This document shows, in pieces, positions 106 to 5,242 of a DNA stretch of 15,366 nt. Position 1 is the first letter of the stretch. Each line of letters starts with the position of its first letter. Under the pieces are notes generated by a model that saw nothing but the letters and a program-made list of their open reading frames with translations, searched no databases and was not told where the DNA came from. The stretch is from NCBI RefSeq assembly GCF_003334315.1, contig NZ_QOWR01000075.1; one strand, given 5' to 3'. Both the position numbers and the translations under genes were made by a program. Source of the DNA: Escherichia coli (GTDB lineage Bacteria; Pseudomonadota; Gammaproteobacteria; Enterobacterales; Enterobacteriaceae).

Positions 106-483
106 TTACGTGGGTAGGATCAGATCAGGAACAGCTTTAACAGTAGCTTCTTGTTGTGTCTTGGCTTCTTGTCTAGCTTCTTCTTGTGGAATATCTACCA
201 CTTGATAGACATTAGAACTTCCTGGTCGTGCATCTTTTATAATTAACCCCATTTCGAGCAATTTCTTAACCCTTTCCTCTGCTGCTCTTGGTGTTATGCC
301 AAAAACATCGCCTATCTTAGCGTAAGAGGGAAATGCACGATCAAACCCTTTCAGATAGCAGTAAAGATTTTTAGCACTATCTGTAAATTTATGCCCGTTT
401 ACTTGGCTTATTTTTAGAATCCACATAGGAACTTTTACAAATTGTTCTTCATTAATCATTAAAAATCTCCTTGATGTAATCAC
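106..483 (-). CDS. HTH_36-like winged-helix DNA-binding protein, 125 aa (putative replication-initiator-like or regulatory protein of the element)
   Basis: ORF MITSRRFLMINEEQFVKVPMWILK...; the central segment SAKNLYCYLKGFDRAFPSYAKIGDVFGITPRAAEERVKKLLEMGLI has the pattern I associate with the HTH_36 family found in phage/plasmid Rep-like proteins. Strong RBS: the minus strand reads AAGGAGA about 7 nt before the ATG. Last gene of a tightly packed three-gene operon. Confidence 0.55.
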   Translation of the reverse strand: MITSRRFLMINEEQFVKVPMWILKISQVNGHKFTDSAKNLYCYLKGFDRAFPSYAKIGDVFGITPRAAEERVKKLLEMGLIIKDARPGSSNVYQVVDIPQEEARQEAKTQQEATVKAVPDLILPT

Positions 484-512
484 GCTCTATGGCGCTACTA
501 TGGTGATAAAAA

Positions 513-683
513 TCACTTGCTTTTATTTGAGAGTGTTTCAGCCTCTCTTTTCAACATATCAAGAATGTAATCTGTGACAGTGATACGTCTACTTCTGGCT
601 TCTTTAAATAACACCTGAAATACTTCATCAGGAATATGAAAGCAAGTGCGTGGTTGTCTTTTCTTTTCTGTAGTTTCGCTCAT
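513..683 (-). CDS. Small ribbon-helix-helix-like (CopG/Arc-type) protein, 56 aa; absent from the supplied ORF track (below length cutoff)
   Basis: Hand translation of the minus strand: MSETTEKKRQPRTCFHIPDEVFQVLFKEARSRRITVTDYILDMLKREAETLSNKSK, stop TGA (complement at 513-515). The pattern basic N-terminus, beta-strand (TCFHIPDEV), helix (FQVLFKEARSRR), helix (ITVTDYILDMLK) is RHH-like. Strong RBS AAGGAG 6 nt upstream; 19-nt gap to the upstream gene and 29-nt gap to the downstream gene. Confidence 0.35.
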   Translation of the reverse strand: MSETTEKKRQPRTCFHIPDEVFQVLFKEARSRRITVTDYILDMLKREAETLSNKSK

Positions 684-702
684 AGTTTTCTCCTTCTATT
701 CT

Positions 703-891
703 TTACTCTGTTTCAGATTCTTTTTCATTTTTTCTTAATTCATCAATAATCTTGAGTGCTTCATTGAAGCAAGCTGCTCGCTCTGGATAACCTCGACTCC
801 TTGCCATATTACGATTCATTACTATTTGGTGGCGTGTAAGCTCACCTTTTTTAAATGCCGCGACAACGTGTTCCGATGTGAACCATTTCAT
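703..891 (-). CDS. Hypothetical small protein, 62 aa; first gene of the three-gene operon
   Basis: ORF MKWFTSEHVVAAFKKGELTRHQIVMNRNMARSRGYPERAACFNEALKIIDELRKNEKESETE with a strong RBS (minus strand TAAGGAGTTTTTT then ATG). I do not recognise a family. Confidence 0.4.
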   Translation of the reverse strand: MKWFTSEHVVAAFKKGELTRHQIVMNRNMARSRGYPERAACFNEALKIIDELRKNEKESETE

Positions 892-1122
892 AAAAAACTC
901 CTTATTCAGTTAAAAGAAAAACACCTTGCAAGCCTGACGGCTTCAAAGTGCATTGATTTTGATTATTTAGAGAAGAATGTTTTTCTGTCCCTCTAATACC
1001 TATTATTACATATAAAGAAACATTTGTCAATACCTTTTCACAAAAAATCTGATCTTTTTCATGTACTTACATTTTTTCTTAGCAATTCGTGCTCTTCTGT
1101 GTAGTGCTATTCTTCCTTATTG

Positions 1123-1145
1123 TCTAAAACGCTCTAAAACGCGTT
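1123..1145. repeat. Tandem 10-bp direct repeat tctaaaacgc x2 running into the palindrome AACGCGTT
   Basis: Seen directly: tctaaaacgc at 1123-1132 and 1133-1142, followed by a degenerate third unit (gttctaacga). Lies in the non-coding region upstream of the minus-strand operon. Confidence 0.4.
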
Positions 1146-1461
1146 CTAACGAGGTTTTGATAAAAGCAATACATTCCCTTATGTAATGGCTGTTTAGCTC
1201 GCCAGAGGCTTATTTAAGGGGCTTATTTTGTATTTGTTAGGTATATGAAAAGGTGATGGTAGATATAAGATAGAGAGTCACTTTATAAAACGCTCTGTAA
1301 AGCCCTGTAGTGAGTTTATATATGTAGGCAATGCGTTTCCATTCCCTACCCTGCTTAATGCTGTTAGAGAAGCATTTAGACCCCTTATTTTTAATTACCT
1401 AAAGTATCCTCTATACATTCCTGTTATGAAACACCTCTGAATCCTTCATAAAACACATTAT

Positions 1462-1517
1462 GACGCAAAGAACACTTTTCTAAGGTGATTCCCTTCCTGA
1501 ATGCTGTTTCTTGCGTC
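1462..1517. repeat. Imperfect inverted repeat, 13-nt arms (gacgcaaagaaca ... tgtttcttgcgtc), 30-nt spacer
   Basis: Seen directly; 11 of 13 positions are complementary. Possible operator or RNA hairpin. Confidence 0.4.
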
Positions 1518-1560
1518 AAAGAGCTACACAGAGCTTATAAAGCTATTATTAATAATAAAG

Positions 1561-1620
1561 TAGACAAAGTAAGTAAGATAAGTAAGTAAGATAACTAAGA
1601 TAGATAAGATTAATAAGATC
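1561..1620. repeat. Degenerate AT-rich short tandem repeat (aagtaag / ataagat units)
   Basis: Seen directly: aagtaagataagtaagtaagataactaagatagataagattaataagatc. Confidence 0.6.
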
Positions 1621-1630
1621 AGAATTCTCT

Positions 1631-1660
1631 TTCGGTGTCGCCTCTGGCTTTTCCACCGAA
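1631..1660. other. Hairpin-forming inverted repeat ttcggtg-N16-caccgaa
   Basis: Seen directly: 7-bp perfect arms with a T-rich loop (tcgcctctggcttttc), located just before the first 42-bp direct repeat. Confidence 0.35.
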
Positions 1661-1663
1661 AAC

Positions 1664-1828
1664 AATTACACAACTACAGAGAATAACGAGAGTTATTAAA
1701 TGTAGAAAGTGGAATTGTATTGAGGCTTAGTGAAATTACACGAGGAAAGCAGAGTGTAATTGAGCTTTAGCCGCTCTCTCTTCGAGTAATTACACAACTA
1801 CAGAGAATAACAGAGTTATTAAATGTAG
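1664..1828. repeat. Pair of 41/42-bp direct repeats (aattacacaactacagagaataac(g)agagttattaaatgtag) about 124 bp apart
   Basis: Seen directly: copy 1 at 1664-1705, copy 2 at 1788-1828, differing by a single g indel. Each contains the short palindrome aataac...gttatt and is followed by similar sequence (gaaagtggaatt / gagggtaatt). Confidence 0.7.
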
Positions 1829-1917
1829 GAGGGTAATTAAGAGTTAGAGAGAGTTAACACATAAGCAATCAGTATGATTGGTTAGGTGATTACTCTTCTG
1901 CGCACAGCGCAATAGTA

Positions 1918-1960
1918 TTTCTTCGTGGGCGTTACCGCCAACGATAGTTACACGAAGAAA
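1918..1960. other. Strong stem-loop: 10-bp perfect inverted repeat tttcttcgtg / cacgaagaaa enclosing a nested ggcg-ttac-cgcc hairpin, within a locally GC-richer segment (about 1860-2075); candidate structured RNA or protein-binding site
   Basis: Seen directly. The 75-codon minus-strand ORF over this segment has no obvious RBS or protein-like composition, so I favour a structural element over a CDS. Confidence 0.4.
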
Positions 1961-2128
1961 GTAACGCTTTGCTTTCGGTGTGAGCGGAACGGGCCAGCCA
2001 CGAAGCCCAAAGGTAGCGGAGTAAGGCTGCTTGCCAGAGAGTGAAGCTAACGCCGGAAGGCAAAAGATCATATAAATAAATATATAATATTATAATTTAA
2101 TAAGTAATTTAATAAATGATCTAATAGG

Positions 2129-2262
2129 TAACAGAATTCTGTGGGGGTGTCTAACAGTTTTCTGTGGGGGTGTCTAACAGAATTCTGTTAGGGTGGGGTA
2201 ACAGAATTTTGTTAGGGTAAAAATCTCTTTAAAAGTTAAGATTAACAGAATTCTGTGGGGGG
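2129..2262. repeat. Repeat family A: palindrome (t)AACAGAATTCTGT(T) followed by G-runs (gtggggg); direct repeat ctgtgggggtgtctaacag x2
   Basis: Seen directly: copies starting near 2129, 2176, 2199 (degenerate, aattttgtt) and 2243, with a fifth at 2538. ACAGAATTCTGT is a perfect 12-bp palindrome, a likely dimeric DNA-binding-protein site. Confidence 0.7.
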
Positions 2263-2325
2263 TAGCTCACAGTGACCTACCCCCTAGTTCACTATGACCT
2301 ACCCCCCTAGGTCACAGTGACCTAT
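2263..2325. repeat. Iteron cluster 1 (family B): three roughly 21-bp units tag(c/t)tcac(a/t)(g/a)tgacctacccc; the third is the perfect palindrome AGGTCACAGTGACCT
   Basis: Seen directly: 2263-2284, 2285-2307 and 2307-2325; the palindrome is at 2309-2323. Confidence 0.7.
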
Positions 2326-2349
2326 ATAGTATAAAGAATATTATTTATA

Positions 2350-2377
2350 TTATTTAATTATAGTATTTAATTATAGT
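2350..2377. repeat. AT-rich 13-bp tandem repeat (atttaattatagt x2) in a roughly 50-bp A+T tract; candidate DNA-unwinding element
   Basis: Seen directly, lying between iteron families B and C. Iterons next to an AT-rich tract is the classical origin layout. Confidence 0.45.
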
Positions 2378-2385
2378 ATTGGTGG

Positions 2386-2483
2386 AACTCATTTCCTAGG
2401 TAGGTAGGAACTAATTTCCTAAGTAGGTAGGAAACCACTTCCTAGGTTACTTCCTAAATAGATCGGAAATCATTTCCTAGGTG
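2386..2483. repeat. Repeat family C: (a/c)tttcctagg(taggtagga) units at roughly 22-bp spacing (4-5 copies); contains the palindrome CCTAGG
   Basis: Seen directly: tttcctagg at 2392, tttcctaag at 2414, cttcctagg at 2438, cttcctaaa at 2451, tttcctagg at 2473. Confidence 0.6.
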
Positions 2484-2498
2484 TTATTTATACTTATC

Positions 2499-2535
2499 GG
2501 GTATCAGTTTTGATAGGGGTATCAGACTTGATAGG
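2499..2535. repeat. Repeat family D: gggtatcag(tt/ac)ttgatag x2 in tandem, 19-bp period
   Basis: Seen directly at 2499-2516 and 2517/2518-2535. Confidence 0.6.
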
Positions 2536-2556
2536 GGTAACAGAATTCTGTGGGGG

Positions 2557-2618
2557 TAGTTCACTATGACCTACCCCTAGTTCACTGTGAGCTACCCCTA
2601 GTTCACTGTGAGCTACCG
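2557..2618. repeat. Iteron cluster 2 (family B): three head-to-tail 21-bp units tagttcac(t)(a/g)tga(c/g)ctacc(cc)
   Basis: Seen directly: 2557-2577, 2578-2598 and 2599-2618, with exact 21-bp periodicity (two helical turns), as expected for Rep-binding iterons. Confidence 0.75.
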
Positions 2619-2712
2619 TTACATCCAATCATCTGTCGATGTAACATATCGTTACTACCAACTTTCTTACAAAGAGCATTTCAGATAGCTGAATGTAACC
2701 TCTCGTTACATC
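2617..2712. repeat. Palindrome-rich block: gttacatc-N12-gatgtaac, gtaac-atatc-gttac, and cgttacatcc repeated (2617 and 2703)
   Basis: Seen directly. Confidence 0.5.
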
Positions 2713-2729
2713 CATTTGTCACATAGCAC

Positions 2730-3210
2730 TCTGTGTAATGCCTTTCTATGTGTGTGCCATAATCCCCCTATATTCCCTGTGTAAATCATAGAATAATGCT
2801 CTCTATTCCCTGTGTAATTCCCTACTAAAAATCAATGAAAAAGTAGCTTAAAGTTGCAATTCTTACTTTCTTCACTTTTACATCACTTTCGCAAAGCCTT
2901 GTGTAATGCGGCTTACAGAGCACCATCAGAAATTGTTGGCTAAAAATTATTCTGCTTGTTTCTGAACGAGTTTTCTCGTTTGTGCAAATTTTAAAATTTA
3001 TTTTGTTTTTACAGCCTTATTTCGTGTAATGCGTGGCATAGCAAGCCCTTTTCTTGTGTTGTCAAGACATTTGGCAACGTTCAAACATCTGTTTAGAAAT
3101 GCCAAATTGTTGATCTAACAAATAAACCTGTATAAACAGAACACCATTTAATCTATTCCCCTGTGTATCCATTAGGCATACCAAATGAATACAGCTAAAT
3201 CGTGTAATAT
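2730..3210. repeat. Dispersed motif (c)tgtgtaat(g) recurring about 7 times, including the direct repeat tattccctgtgtaa x2 (2770-2818)
   Basis: Seen directly near 2733, 2779, 2811, 2901, 3026, 3161 (variant tgtgtatcc) and 3203. The region is non-coding and leads up to the recombinase gene. Confidence 0.45.
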
Positions 3211-3262
3211 TCCGTACCCATAAGGCTTGAAACAGACCAAATGAATACGGTATACTCATTTG
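3169..3262. promoter_or_regulatory. Putative res/hix-like recombinase binding region: duplicated motif cat(t/a)aggc..accaaatgaatac(a/g)g plus the palindrome caaatga-N11-tcatttg
   Basis: Seen directly: copy 1 at 3169-3194, copy 2 at 3217-3250, palindrome at 3238-3262 with the palindromic core gtatac. The location immediately 5' of a resolvase-family gene is where res sites sit in Tn3-family and plasmid resolution systems. Confidence 0.4.
3227..3256 (+). promoter_or_regulatory. Putative sigma70 promoter of the recombinase gene (-35 TTGAAA, 18-bp spacer, -10 TATACT)
   Basis: -35 at 3227-3232, -10 at 3251-3256, about 45 nt upstream of the ATG at 3302. The -10 lies inside the palindrome, which would suggest autoregulation. 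Sequence-pattern inference only. Confidence 0.35.
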
Positions 3263-3301
3263 CATTTAAGTAGTGCCAAATCGACACATTAAGAGGATTT
3301 T

Positions 3302-3841
3302 ATGAGCAATATCGGTTATAAGCGTGTGAGCACTGTAGATCAGAACACTGATCGCCAGCTTGCAGGAGTAACTCTCGATAAAGTCTTTGAAGATAAGCTG
3401 TCTGGTAAAGACACTAACCGCCCAGGCTTACAAGCGTGTTTAGCCTATCTGAGAGAAGGCGACACCTTACACGTGCACTCTCTCGACCGTTTAGGACGTA
3501 ACACCTTAGACATCCTTGCTTTAGTTGAACAACTTAATAATCGAGGTGTAATTGTTCGATTTCACAAAGAAGGAATCATTGCAGACATTACAAGCGCGAT
3601 GGGAAAGATGATGCTTACGATGTTGTCGGCAGTTGCAACGTGTGAACGTGAACTGATGTTAGAACGTAAACGAGAAGCGCAAGCCGTCAATCCTACAAAA
3701 CGTGGTAATGGAAAAGCAGTGGATCGAGAAGGTATAAAGAAAGCCCTTTCTGATGGCCTGTCAGTGCGTAAAACCGCCGAGAGCTTTAATGTTGCTCCTT
3801 CAACGGTGCAACGTATCAAGAAGGAAGAAGAGGAGGCGTAA
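3302..3841 (+). CDS. Small serine recombinase (resolvase/invertase family), 179 aa
   Basis: N-terminal GYKRVSTVDQ is the catalytic-serine motif of serine recombinases. Conserved blocks FEDKLSG, RPGL, LDRLGR and SAVATCERELMLER resemble the Tn3 TnpR, Gin and Hin layout. A C-terminal HTH is present (LSVRKTAESFNVAPSTVQRIKK). RBS AAGAGGA lies 5 nt upstream. Not identical to the Pin or Gin sequences I recall. Confidence 0.85.
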   Translation: MSNIGYKRVSTVDQNTDRQLAGVTLDKVFEDKLSGKDTNRPGLQACLAYLREGDTLHVHSLDRLGRNTLDILALVEQLNNRGVIVRFHKEGIIADITSAMGKMMLTMLSAVATCERELMLERKREAQAVNPTKRGNGKAVDREGIKKALSDGLSVRKTAESFNVAPSTVQRIKKEEEEA

Positions 3842-3850
3842 TGCCTCCTT
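3829..3850 (+). terminator. Possible hairpin at the recombinase stop (ggaggcg-taa-tgcctcc)
   Basis: 6-bp GC stem spanning the stop codon, followed by ttgatattt. Weak T-tract, so low confidence. Confidence 0.25.
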
Positions 3851-4077
3851 GATATTTGAGAATTGTCGCTGCGTGGACCTGACGGCGCTGATCTTCTCGT
3901 TAAGCGATGATCACGTATGCGCCGATTTCAGAGAAAAAGACAGTAACTGAACTCACTATGAAGGCTAAACGTATCTTTACACTTGATGAAAACGTTCAAA
4001 AAACAACCTAACCCCAAAATTCAACAAATTGCAACACATTGTTTTTAAAAGAAAATTAAATCTACATCAAATATTGG

Positions 4078-4106
4078 TTGACGTAGATTGAGGTGAATAG
4101 TAGACT
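4078..4106 (+). promoter_or_regulatory. Putative promoter for the small hydrophobic ORF (-35 TTGACG, 17-bp spacer, -10 TAGACT)
   Basis: Pattern match only; would give a leader of about 70 nt before the ATG at 4183. Confidence 0.25.
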
Positions 4107-4182
4107 ATTAGGGTAAATTACCACCCTTGTAACATCATTTAATGCATGTTCTAATCTTCCTATCGTAAAACCGGAGGAAGTT

Positions 4183-4341
4183 ATGCATTTACTTTCAAAA
4201 CATCTTCACACTATTCACTTTCTCGTTATTGATGTATTCGTTGTGGCTATTAGTTACCGCATTTGCATCGCTTCCAGTGAAGAGATGGACGCTGTTGCAA
4301 TTATTGCTCAAGCAATGGCGATATTAACTAAACGACTTTAA
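4183..4341 (+). CDS. Small hydrophobic protein, 52 aa (candidate small membrane protein or toxin-like peptide); absent from the ORF track
   Basis: Hand translation: MHLLSKHLHTIHFLVIDVFVVAISYRICIASSEEMDAVAIIAQAMAILTKRL, stop TAA at 4339-4341. Strong RBS GGAGGAAG 5-6 nt upstream. A roughly 20-residue hydrophobic stretch is consistent with one transmembrane helix. Confidence 0.35.
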   Translation: MHLLSKHLHTIHFLVIDVFVVAISYRICIASSEEMDAVAIIAQAMAILTKRL

Positions 4342-4354
4342 TAATTTCACTATC

Positions 4355-4398
4355 AGGCGCATAAACACATCTTTGATCGCTGGATGTGTTATGCGCCT
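4355..4398. terminator. Long near-perfect inverted repeat (aggcgcataaacacatc - N11 - gatgtgttatgcgcct) between the two convergent small ORFs; candidate bidirectional terminator or operator
   Basis: Seen directly: arms at 4355-4371 and 4383-4398, 16 of 17 positions paired with one bulged A. The position between convergent ORFs fits a terminator, though flanking T-tracts are weak. Confidence 0.45.
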
Positions 4399-4407
4399 AC
4401 TGGTGAT

Positions 4408-4560
4408 TCAATCCTTAAGCCATTTCAACTCACTAAGGAGTTTTCTTTCTTCGTTCTCTCGTTGCTTTCGCTCTAGCCAGGCTTTTCCCTCTGGCGTAGA
4501 CAGGAACTTACGAGCGTGAATCTTGCGGTTATTACGTTTTATAGCTGCAATGTTTTTCAT
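4408..4560 (-). CDS. Small basic protein, 50 aa, hypothetical; absent from the ORF track
   Basis: Hand translation of the minus strand: MKNIAAIKRNNRKIHARKFLSTPEGKAWLERKQRENEERKLLSELKWLKD, stop TGA (complement at 4408-4410). A possible RBS (AGAGG) lies upstream. I do not recognise a family. Confidence 0.3.
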   Translation of the reverse strand: MKNIAAIKRNNRKIHARKFLSTPEGKAWLERKQRENEERKLLSELKWLKD

Positions 4561-5166
4561 CGTGTTGCCTCTGTATTCATATGAAAATTAACAAGTTACA
4601 TACTACACAGGGAGACTACGCATAAAACACAATACAAGTAAAGATACATTTTCAAGACAATAGGAGCCATAAAGCGCCTTTGATGGTTATACCAAAAAAT
4701 AAGCGCCGTAGGCGTATCCACTAAAAAGGGCTTTTTCACAAAAGCTATGAAGTCTTAGCAGTTCTTCTCTTATCAGGCACCCGTTGTACTCCGGTGGACG
4801 AAACCGTGCTAGAGCTTGATTCTTTCCCGATCAAGTTAGGTTTTGAAGAGGTGGGCTTTAATCCACTATTGCACTTAAAACTCTTCCCATCATTTAGCCT
4901 GTTTATCCTCTGCAACGTCTCACGACGTGTAGCATCATTGGACACCGCGCCAGGTGTGGAACATCTTGCTAAGAGTTTTGGTAGAAGGTTTAGAGACGGT
5001 GGCACGTCTTCCAGCTTCAAAGGAACTTGTTACGAGGTTGAGCCTGGGAACTACTCGCCCATACGTGTTACACTACCAAAGCCCATAACAACGTATAGGC
5101 GTTTGTAAGTGATAACAGAAGATACAATTTCTTAGAGAAGTTAAGCTAAGTTATTGATTTTCTTGA

Positions 5167-5242
5167 TGGTGCCGATAATAGGAGTCGAACCTACGACCTT
5201 CGCATTACGAATGCGCTGCTCTACCAACTGAGCTATATCGGC
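5167..5242 (-). tRNA. thrW: tRNA-Thr (anticodon CGU), thrW-like
   Basis: The minus strand reads GCCGATATAGCTCAGTTGGTAGAGCAGCGCATTCGTAATGCGAAGGTCGTAGGTTCGACTCCTATTATCGGCACCA: cloverleaf features, anticodon loop TTCGTAA, encoded CCA. It sits downstream of proA as in E. coli. Confidence 0.95.

Follow-up and report, generated by a model that had tools for sequence, protein, structure and literature searches.

In PLE, an element of Vibrio cholerae that resembles a phage-inducible chromosomal island, the RepA_N domain of the initiator and the semi-palindromic iterons covary, while the C-domain is conserved (PMC8263062). The phage ICP1 carries Odn, a mimic of RepA_N fused to T5orf172, which cuts the PLE iterons (PMC8263062). 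In the origins of lambda and of the Shiga toxin (Stx) phages, the O proteins are found as dimers on iterons beside an AT-rich tract, and two iterons together with the AT tract suffice for unwinding (PMC7466680). The subject of the present analysis is a 15,366-nucleotide stretch of the Escherichia coli chromosome (contig NZ_QOWR01000075.1, hereafter the window), in which a set of palindromes lies within ~2.3 kb (about 1000-3300) of DNA lacking a convincing open reading frame (ORF), between the gene of a conserved 62-residue protein and that of a serine recombinase. On the evidence of the sequence, the palindromes are probably the symmetric central parts of iterons, and these would make up the modular, vegetative replication origin of a so far uncharacterised chromosomal island of Escherichia, itself probably a phage satellite. 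Island-borne origins, with Rep-specific iterons flanking an AT-rich region, are also known from the Staphylococcus aureus pathogenicity islands (SaPI) and the wider group of phage-inducible chromosomal islands.

As in PLE, a chromosomal island carries a non-coding origin with semi-palindromic iterons, origin and initiator N-domain covary, and the C-part of the initiator is common. Unlike PLE, the initiator (Rep) matches the helix-turn-helix (HTH) family HTH_36 and O-like families and not RepA_N, there are five modules instead of two, and many of the origins are compound or layered. The ICP1 side has its parallel in lytic phage proteins that are, by sequence, chimeras of a satellite DNA-binding domain and a putative nuclease domain of the T5orf172/GIY-YIG clan. 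However, these proteins carry two satellite-derived DNA-binding domains in tandem, where Odn has one, two of the phages also carry the ribbon-helix-helix (RHH) gene of the island, and the host is Escherichia, the phages being phi92/phAPEC8-like. With the lambdoid ori and O, the island shares four to six iterons beside an AT tract, the division of the initiator into an N-terminal DNA-binding half and a C-terminal recruitment half, and a PHROG O-like match. The lambdoid ori is inside the O gene, whereas in the island the RHH and small-protein genes separate the origin from rep, a distance of ~1.7 kb; in addition, there is no gene for a P-like helicase loader, and the Rep C-termini end in a D-x-[IL]-P-F motif resembling the tail of SSB, the protein that binds single-stranded DNA. 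SaPI Rep is a helicase with short (~6-bp) iterons; island Rep has no helicase domain, and neither alpA nor pri-rep genes were seen in the islands examined.

An earlier note on this DNA had singled out perfect palindromes and taken them for repressor-like sites interleaved with separate, Rep-like direct repeats. The shorter, ACAGAATTCTGT, is indeed a perfect 12-bp palindrome and stands exactly as placed at 2131-2142, 2245-2256 and 2540-2551, the copy given as 2178-2189 being really at 2177-2188; degenerate copies occupy 2154-2165 (2 mismatches) and 2201-2212 (1 mismatch). The longer, AGGTCACAGTGACCT, was correctly located at 2309-2323, but is not strictly perfect, as its 7-bp arms flank a central A at which the reverse complement differs. 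Both patterns are confirmed as real and far above chance. With as many as 2 mismatches allowed, 0.58 matches to the ACAGAATTCTGT pattern are expected and 7 are present (0/200 shuffles reach 7); with as many as 3 allowed, the AGGTCAC... pattern has an expectation of 0.20 and is present 12 times over both strands, at 6 sites (0/200 shuffles reach 12).

With three dyad families (C, D and E) beyond those already noted, the window holds five, beside two AT-rich tracts of 7-12% GC and in direct-repeat units of ~21-24 bp, in the order GC-rich block, AT tract 1, five A units, three B, AT tract 2, four C, two D, one A, three B and E. Family A (6 copies in the window) has the core TAACAGAA/TTCTGTTA and a GGGGT tail; family B (6 copies), to which the reported 15-mer belongs, reads TAGnTCAC-n-GTGAnCTA between C-runs; family C (4 copies) is TAGGAA-N5-TTCCTA; family D (2 copies) is TATCA-N4-TGATA between GGGG; and family E (2 copies and a half-site) is GTAAC-N5-GTTAC. 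Units within the A-D arrays are mostly spaced by 18-24 bp, and A, B and C each form at least three repeats of ~20 bp, about two helical turns apart. The features of this part of the window, in which the Rep types are those of the N-terminal domain discussed below, are the following.

1880-2060, + strand: GC-rich (54%) block adjoining the origin, kept in related islands including L006, L007 and L038 (compared loci are cited by number), with a moderate predicted fold
2061-2128, no strand: AT-rich tract 1, 12% GC, first letters AAGATCAT; abuts A; putative DNA-unwinding element of the type 1 origin
2129-2265, + strand: array A, five 23-bp units at 2131, 2154, 2177, 2201 and 2245 (spacing 23/23/24/44 bp), core ACAGAATTCTGT, each with the GGGGT tail; predicted cognate of type 1 Rep
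2263-2324, + strand: first block of array B, three units at 2263, 2285 and 2308 (spacing 22/23 bp), holding AGGTCACAGTGACCT; predicted cognate of type 4 Rep
2325-2380, no strand: AT-rich tract 2, 7% GC; abuts C; resembles the AT tract of type 3 origins (cf. L004)
2384-2482, + strand: array C, four units TAGGAA-N5-TTCCTA(GGT) at 2384, 2407, 2430 and 2465 (spacing 23/23/35 bp), with 3/4 of the CCTAGG sites; predicted cognate of type 3 Rep
2500-2537, + strand: array D, two units GGTATCAnnnnTGATAGGGG; predicted cognate of type 2 Rep
2538-2615, + strand: lone A unit (core 2540-2551), then second B block at 2557, 2578 and 2599 (spacing 21/21 bp)
2617-2711, + strand: array E remnant, half-site 2617-2633 and dyads 2641-2655 and 2695-2709; predicted cognate of type 5 Rep

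An AT tract directly beside the iterons is also present in L004, L006, L007 and L035. The four CCTAGG sites (2306, 2395, 2441 and 2476), which had been reported as a third palindrome, all fall within B or C units, but their number is not significant, 14/200 shuffles reaching 4. The GC-rich block contains the hairpin TGCGCACAGCGCA, and the predicted RNA fold of its + strand has z = -2.4; the block might be a signal for priming or for primosome assembly, or else an RNA.

Since every unit holds one dyad as its conserved core, the dyads are the same sites as the direct repeats, and the proposed interleaving of two kinds of site does not hold. This bears directly on the idea that the dyads are operators, apart from the Rep direct repeats, through which a dimeric RHH or HTH repressor controls transcription of the island. 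Perfect dyads of 12-17 bp are typical operators, and the RHH gene is in the same operon as rep; yet the dyads are here the cores of direct repeats, and an arrangement of four or five copies in phase, next to a tract with 7-12% GC, is the geometry of an origin and not of an operator. Furthermore, the arrays, spanning 2129-2711, are distant from the promoter-like sites of the operon (~1.1 kb) and of the recombinase gene (~0.5 kb), both located by a consensus scan, which also gave a weak match (9/12) inside the arrays at 2317-2344.

The Rep-like ‘transcriptional regulator’ of the islands (217-243 aa) matches the PHROG ‘replication initiation O-like’ families (E 8e-11 to 1e-7), while a sequence search of the PDB with it gave nothing significant. 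It begins with a winged-helix domain, followed by an acidic linker and then by a C-terminal domain whose last residues are D-x-[IL]-P-F; the N-terminal ~100 residues come in five unrelated winged-helix versions across loci, and the C-terminal half is common to the loci. Twenty-nine related Escherichia loci were tabulated, 28 of them with a readable Rep, and in 28/28 the array next to the AT tract is predicted by the type of the Rep N-domain, in five pairs.

Type 1 Rep N-domain: A first, 10/10 loci
Type 2 Rep N-domain: D first, 3/3 loci
Type 3 Rep N-domain: C first, 4/4 loci
Type 4 Rep N-domain: B first, 8/8 loci
Type 5 Rep N-domain: E first, 3 loci

At least one E unit occurs in most of the 29 loci. 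The pairing would amount to a five-way code between protein domains and DNA sites; it also makes AGGTCACAGTGACCT non-cognate in the window, because family B pairs with type 4 Rep and the Rep of the window is of type 1. Random pairing would yield perfect concordance with a probability of 4e-16, a figure that ignores shared ancestry and overstates the case, because the loci are related. The stronger argument is that the pairing survives recombination. Types 1, 3 and 4 are each combined with two or three different Rep C-terminal domains; for types 1 and 4, the intervening non-coding DNA and the attachment sites differ between loci; and the RHH gene, which sits between rep and the origin, occurs both as variant a and as variant b alongside type 1 as well as type 4, that is, with both A-first and B-first origins. 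The 28/28 concordance and the PHROG O-like matches together indicate that the HTH_36-like protein is not a plain repressor. Of the earlier suggestion that the dyads serve dimeric HTH or RHH proteins, an HTH dimer is plausible, with the HTH_36-like protein as the best candidate; the RHH protein, in its variants a and b, shows no association with particular arrays.

For an RHH operator it can still be said that variant c was always found with C arrays (4/4), and that two phages described below, muut and inny, carry the RHH-b gene, so that RHH matters in the conflict. Against the indifference of variants a and b to A-first or B-first origins, and the position and geometry of the arrays, the operator idea appears quite unlikely. 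The same behaviour of variants a and b bears on a centromere-like or handcuffing function, in which the arrays would be partition or incompatibility sites bound by the RHH protein, as in ParR/parC. Tandem repeats of ~20 bp bound by RHH proteins are known centromeres, and an RHH gene is present; however, the element resides in the chromosome, the islands examined showed no gene for a partition ATPase, and AT tracts with an O-like initiator fit an origin, all of which makes this function extremely unlikely. The partition centromere was rejected for want of a partition ATPase, as were the RHH protein and the serine recombinase, as dyad-binding proteins, for want of covariation.

With regard to the recombinase, the dyads might be res/hix-type sites of this adjacent enzyme, for multimer resolution or inversion. 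Its Pin/Hin-like gene borders the region, and islands that are otherwise nearly the same can differ sharply in the arrays they contain, a possible sign of site-specific rearrangement. However, the recombinase variants (179, 183 and 185 aa) are spread over the array families, the covariation being with the Rep N-domain; the sites of Pin/Hin-like serine recombinases are roughly 26-28 bp, longer than the 12-17 bp dyads; and the arrays are direct tandem repeats instead of two or three res subsites. A further point in favour of this very improbable explanation comes from the IncP-9 plasmid pWW0, where a recombinase gene is likewise beside similar repeats. Indeed, the oriV of IncP-9 and small Pseudomonas plasmids (pWW0, L002:1490-1660; pF045_2, L003:2500-2560) has the repeats GGGGTAGCTCA...TGAGCTACCCC upstream of rep, with a serine recombinase gene on their other side; these resemble family B with 77-80% identity over ~55-70 nt, and a AGATCATAAGAA motif stands upstream of them, as AAGATCAT does in the window. 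Unlike family B (TAGnTCAC-N1-GTGAnCTA), the Pseudomonas dyad is TAGCTCA-N7-TGAGCTA, and the similarity between Rep and the Pseudomonas plasmid Rep is marginal, confined to the HTH region (E 0.007 over 20 residues). This likeness is a lead, not a demonstrated relationship.

Taking the arrays as cognate sites of Rep, their order is nested: E alone with type 5; B, E with type 4; A, B, E with type 1; D, A, B, E with type 2; and C, D, A, B, E with type 3. A whole second module follows the cognate array in the window, L005, L008, L010, L039 and L048. The window carries what reads as a type 1 origin (AT tract, five A and three B) joined to a complete type 3-style origin (AT tract, four C, two D, one A, three B and E). 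Such compound origins may be relics of serial replacement, may allow cross-activation by the Reps of co-resident islands or may titrate these Reps.

The first of these possibilities can be put in a stricter form, namely that the AT-proximal cognate array alone works and that B (including AGGTCACAGTGACCT), C, D and E in the window are leftovers of module replacement or unequal recombination. The nested order looks like successive insertions beside the AT tract, with older units left behind; the first E unit in the window is cut at the B/E junction; and simple origins without extra arrays exist (L007, L009 and L028). On the other hand, the second module of the window is complete, with an AT tract of its own, and between its four C units and those of the cognate type 3 origin of L011 there is a difference at just one base; compound origins are common, 143 genomes covering at least 80% of the 2.3-kb region; and a supply of Reps in trans is plausible, because genomes hold up to five related places. 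To the leftover account we give somewhat less than even weight.

The window copy of the island is probably not autonomous, because an IS3-family insertion sequence (IS) cuts its type 1 Rep after the DNA-binding domain. The rep of a second locus, L048, is likewise cut, by IS911. A free type 1 DNA-binding domain from the truncated rep might still occupy the A iterons.

As a modular origin, the system would function as follows. Rep would bind each dyad as a dimer, in the manner of lambda O; on four or five units, with a phasing of about two helical turns, it would next form an oligomer, and the oligomerised Rep would open the adjoining AT-rich tract. The modular pairs would be type 1 with A (ACAGAATTCTGT), type 4 with B (the AGGTCACAGTGACCT family), type 3 with C, type 2 with D and type 5 with E. 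The D-x-[IL]-P-F end is present in nearly all full-length Reps, even in those with otherwise unrelated C-terminal domains (e.g. L005:12813-13466, - strand), in the forms …YEDFDIPF, …IYDSLPF, …IYDSIPF and …DFDLPF, and is absent from the window Rep through the IS3 truncation. These ends resemble the C-terminal tail of E. coli SSB, DDDIPF (PMC5872125), and may mimic it to recruit host replication proteins. Distant type 1-like Reps are found in Serratia and Raoultella (P0107, P0108 and P0100), with the C-termini …SSDDIVF, …SSDDIAF and …RFGTPF; therefore the module family reaches beyond Escherichia.

The same DNA-binding domains recur in phages. A protein search with the type 1 N-domain against 50,697 phage records matched two lytic Phapecoctavirus phages with 93-96% protein identity, type 1 being the sole domain type compared as protein. 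The domain layouts of the phage proteins, as read from translations, are the following.

L049:3001-3987, phage Mt1B1_P17 (QNJ49226.1): type 1, linker, type 3 and a ~110-aa C-domain
L052:877-1866, phage BI-EHEC, gene unannotated: type 1, linker, type 3 and a ~110-aa C-domain
L051:868-1866, phage muut (QHR65951.1): type 2, type 3 and the same C-domain as Mt1B1_P17
L050:2914-4017, phage inny (QHR69854.1): type 5, type 3 and the same C-domain as Mt1B1_P17

All these phages are lytic Stephanstirmvirinae, phi92/phAPEC8-like. Their segments are 95-100% identical in DNA to island rep genes for all four domain types found in phages, nucleotides 1-314 of the Mt1B1_P17 gene being 100% identical to three islands and nucleotides 1-369 of the muut gene 99.7% identical to one; no phage carrier was found for the type 4 domain. 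The C-domain matches PHROG_681 ‘endonuclease’ (E 3e-19), and more distant homologues of it are annotated as homing or GIY-YIG endonucleases; a protein database search with the nuclease domain alone gave nothing at E <= 1e-20, while the full-length query did give matches. Directly upstream of the chimera, muut has an RHH-b gene identical to that of the island (L051:649-816), and inny a copy that differs at the C-terminal end only (L050:2694-2876); this phage RHH gene may be a captured regulator used against the island. Megablast and sensitive blastn searches of the origin region against a phage collection returned no coliphage, the sole match being spurious (a Microbacterium phage), and therefore the DNA that the chimeras would recognise lies in the islands. 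As to helpers, the island gene L005:6803-7516, annotated ‘phage baseplate protein’, has patches of 83-91% DNA identity to the ‘tail tube initiator’/gp135 genes of phi92-like phages, which supports a structural link to these phages as helpers; the capsid-like protein of the island, with 22-26% identity to Pseudomonas phage capsid proteins, is uninformative in this respect.

Because the DNA-binding domains of Rep are fused to a putative nuclease domain in the phages, the iterons are also likely targets of origin-directed nucleases of phages, and the pressure from these would account for the diversification of the modules. We lean, if only slightly, towards the view that the islands are satellites or parasites of lytic phi92/phAPEC8-like phages (Stephanstirmvirinae), and that the two are caught in an arms race of the PLE/ICP1 kind, with the iterons as the contested ground. 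On their side, the islands would diversify their Rep-domain/iteron modules (at least five) and build layered or compound origins; the phages would repeatedly capture 5′ segments of island rep genes (as much as 100% identical in DNA), in some cases taking the RHH gene as well, and would stack two DNA-binding domains on one nuclease, widening the range of iterons that could be cleaved. Within the library searched, the literature holds no description of this island element, nor of such chimeras in coliphages.

Several observations weigh against the reading of the arrays as Rep-specific origins under attack by phage nucleases. The match of Rep to Pfam HTH_36 is weak (E 1e-3 to 5e-5) and that to Pfam Phage_rep_O is not significant (E 7.7); the origin stretch has no DnaA boxes; and there is no helicase or primase gene among the annotated island genes of L005 and L006. 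The concordance between Rep type and array could partly reflect linkage over ~1.7 kb, the loci being related; types 2 and 5 each occur on a single background; and type 3, with its C array, always comes with RHH variant c. The reading also does not account for the role of the non-cognate arrays. As for the chimeras, the Pfam matches of their C-domain are weak (MUG113, E 1.2e-3; T5orf172, E 0.16).

The island is widespread. Homologues of the ~2.3-kb non-coding region are present in 729/5426 complete E. coli genomes, at 1039 places, a single genome having as many as 5; in the 40 records listed, the matching stretch bears no annotated feature. The fuller copies are islands of ~8-13 kb, with an integrase, variable cargo and a conserved core in the order 91-aa gene, Rep-like gene, RHH gene, 60-62-aa gene, non-coding region and serine recombinase gene; the cargo consists of capsid-like, tape-measure-like and tail-tube-initiator-like genes, or else of a GmrSD gene. 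Attachment sites include thrW, the thiamine pyrophosphate (TPP) riboswitch of thiM, tRNA-Leu and tRNA-Gly. Copies were found almost all in Escherichia and Shigella, and their proteins bear generic names only; a scan of genome contigs with the 62-aa protein gave 4 loci, 2 in Escherichia and 2 in metagenome-assembled genomes labelled Bacillota, and a search of a plasmid collection returned only mislabelled E. coli chromosomes and weak Pseudomonas oriV matches. In L006 (12051-21037) and L038 the island core has the thiM TPP riboswitch as its insertion site; L006 shows the riboswitch in duplicate, once at either end, and has a GmrSD restriction gene in place of the capsid-like and tail-like genes; this cargo suggests a hotspot for defence genes.

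In the window, which also holds proA, proB, phoE, crl, frsA, gpt and pepD, such an island, of low GC content and inserted at thrW, has left a remnant at positions 123-5166. The remaining features of the window are the following.

1-122, no strand: end of an IS3-family element that cuts the island rep gene; relatives align from ~123 onward, and IS3 is annotated at the matching place in L001
123-483, - strand: truncated gene of the Rep-like initiator (ORF 106-483), with the type 1 N-terminal winged-helix domain kept (MINEEQFVKVPMW...) and the C-terminal domain lost
513-683, - strand: gene of an RHH (CopG-like) protein, 56 aa, variant a
703-891, - strand: gene of the conserved 62-aa protein (MKWFT...), first in the small-protein/RHH/rep operon
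1002-1030, - strand: sigma-70-like promoter, TTGACA-17-AATAAT with 11/12 matches and a TG extension, facing the small-protein/RHH/rep genes; a consensus match only
3302-3841, + strand: gene of a serine recombinase of the Pin/Hin-like DNA invertase family, 179 aa, right border of the non-coding region
5167-5242, - strand: thrW, tRNA-Thr (CGT), the island attachment site

The promoter-like site before the recombinase gene, from the consensus scan, is at 3227-3256 on the + strand. An Rfam scan of the whole window at the gathering threshold gave tRNA-Thr alone, and so there is no known RNA family over the region. Elsewhere in the non-coding DNA, a direct duplication of 41-42 nt (AATTACACAACTACAGAGAATAAC..AGAGTTATTAAATGTAG) is found at 1664-1705 and 1788-1828, the copies being identical except for one additional base in the first, with several ATTACAC motifs around. 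Upstream of the recombinase gene, a conserved stretch holds four or five direct copies of (CC)CTGTGTAAT(GC) at 2732-3032, at which the recombinase, the RHH protein or else the 62-aa protein might act; TGTGTAAT repeats are carried by the conserved region 2720-3300.

As a modular origin, the palindromes would give a function to a region of ~2.3 kb that bears no annotated feature in the records listed. The conflict proposed here may be the first coliphage counterpart of that between Vibrio PLE and ICP1 Odn, and the phages involved are of interest for therapy against avian pathogenic (APEC), uropathogenic (UPEC) and enterohaemorrhagic (EHEC) E. coli strains. If the islands do restrict these phages and the chimeras overcome the restriction, host range could be predictable from the Rep/iteron type of a strain together with the domains that a phage carries. 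Nucleases with tandem domains and origins of the compound kind would, in turn, be new examples of the exchange of sequence-specific recognition modules between parasites and hyperparasites.

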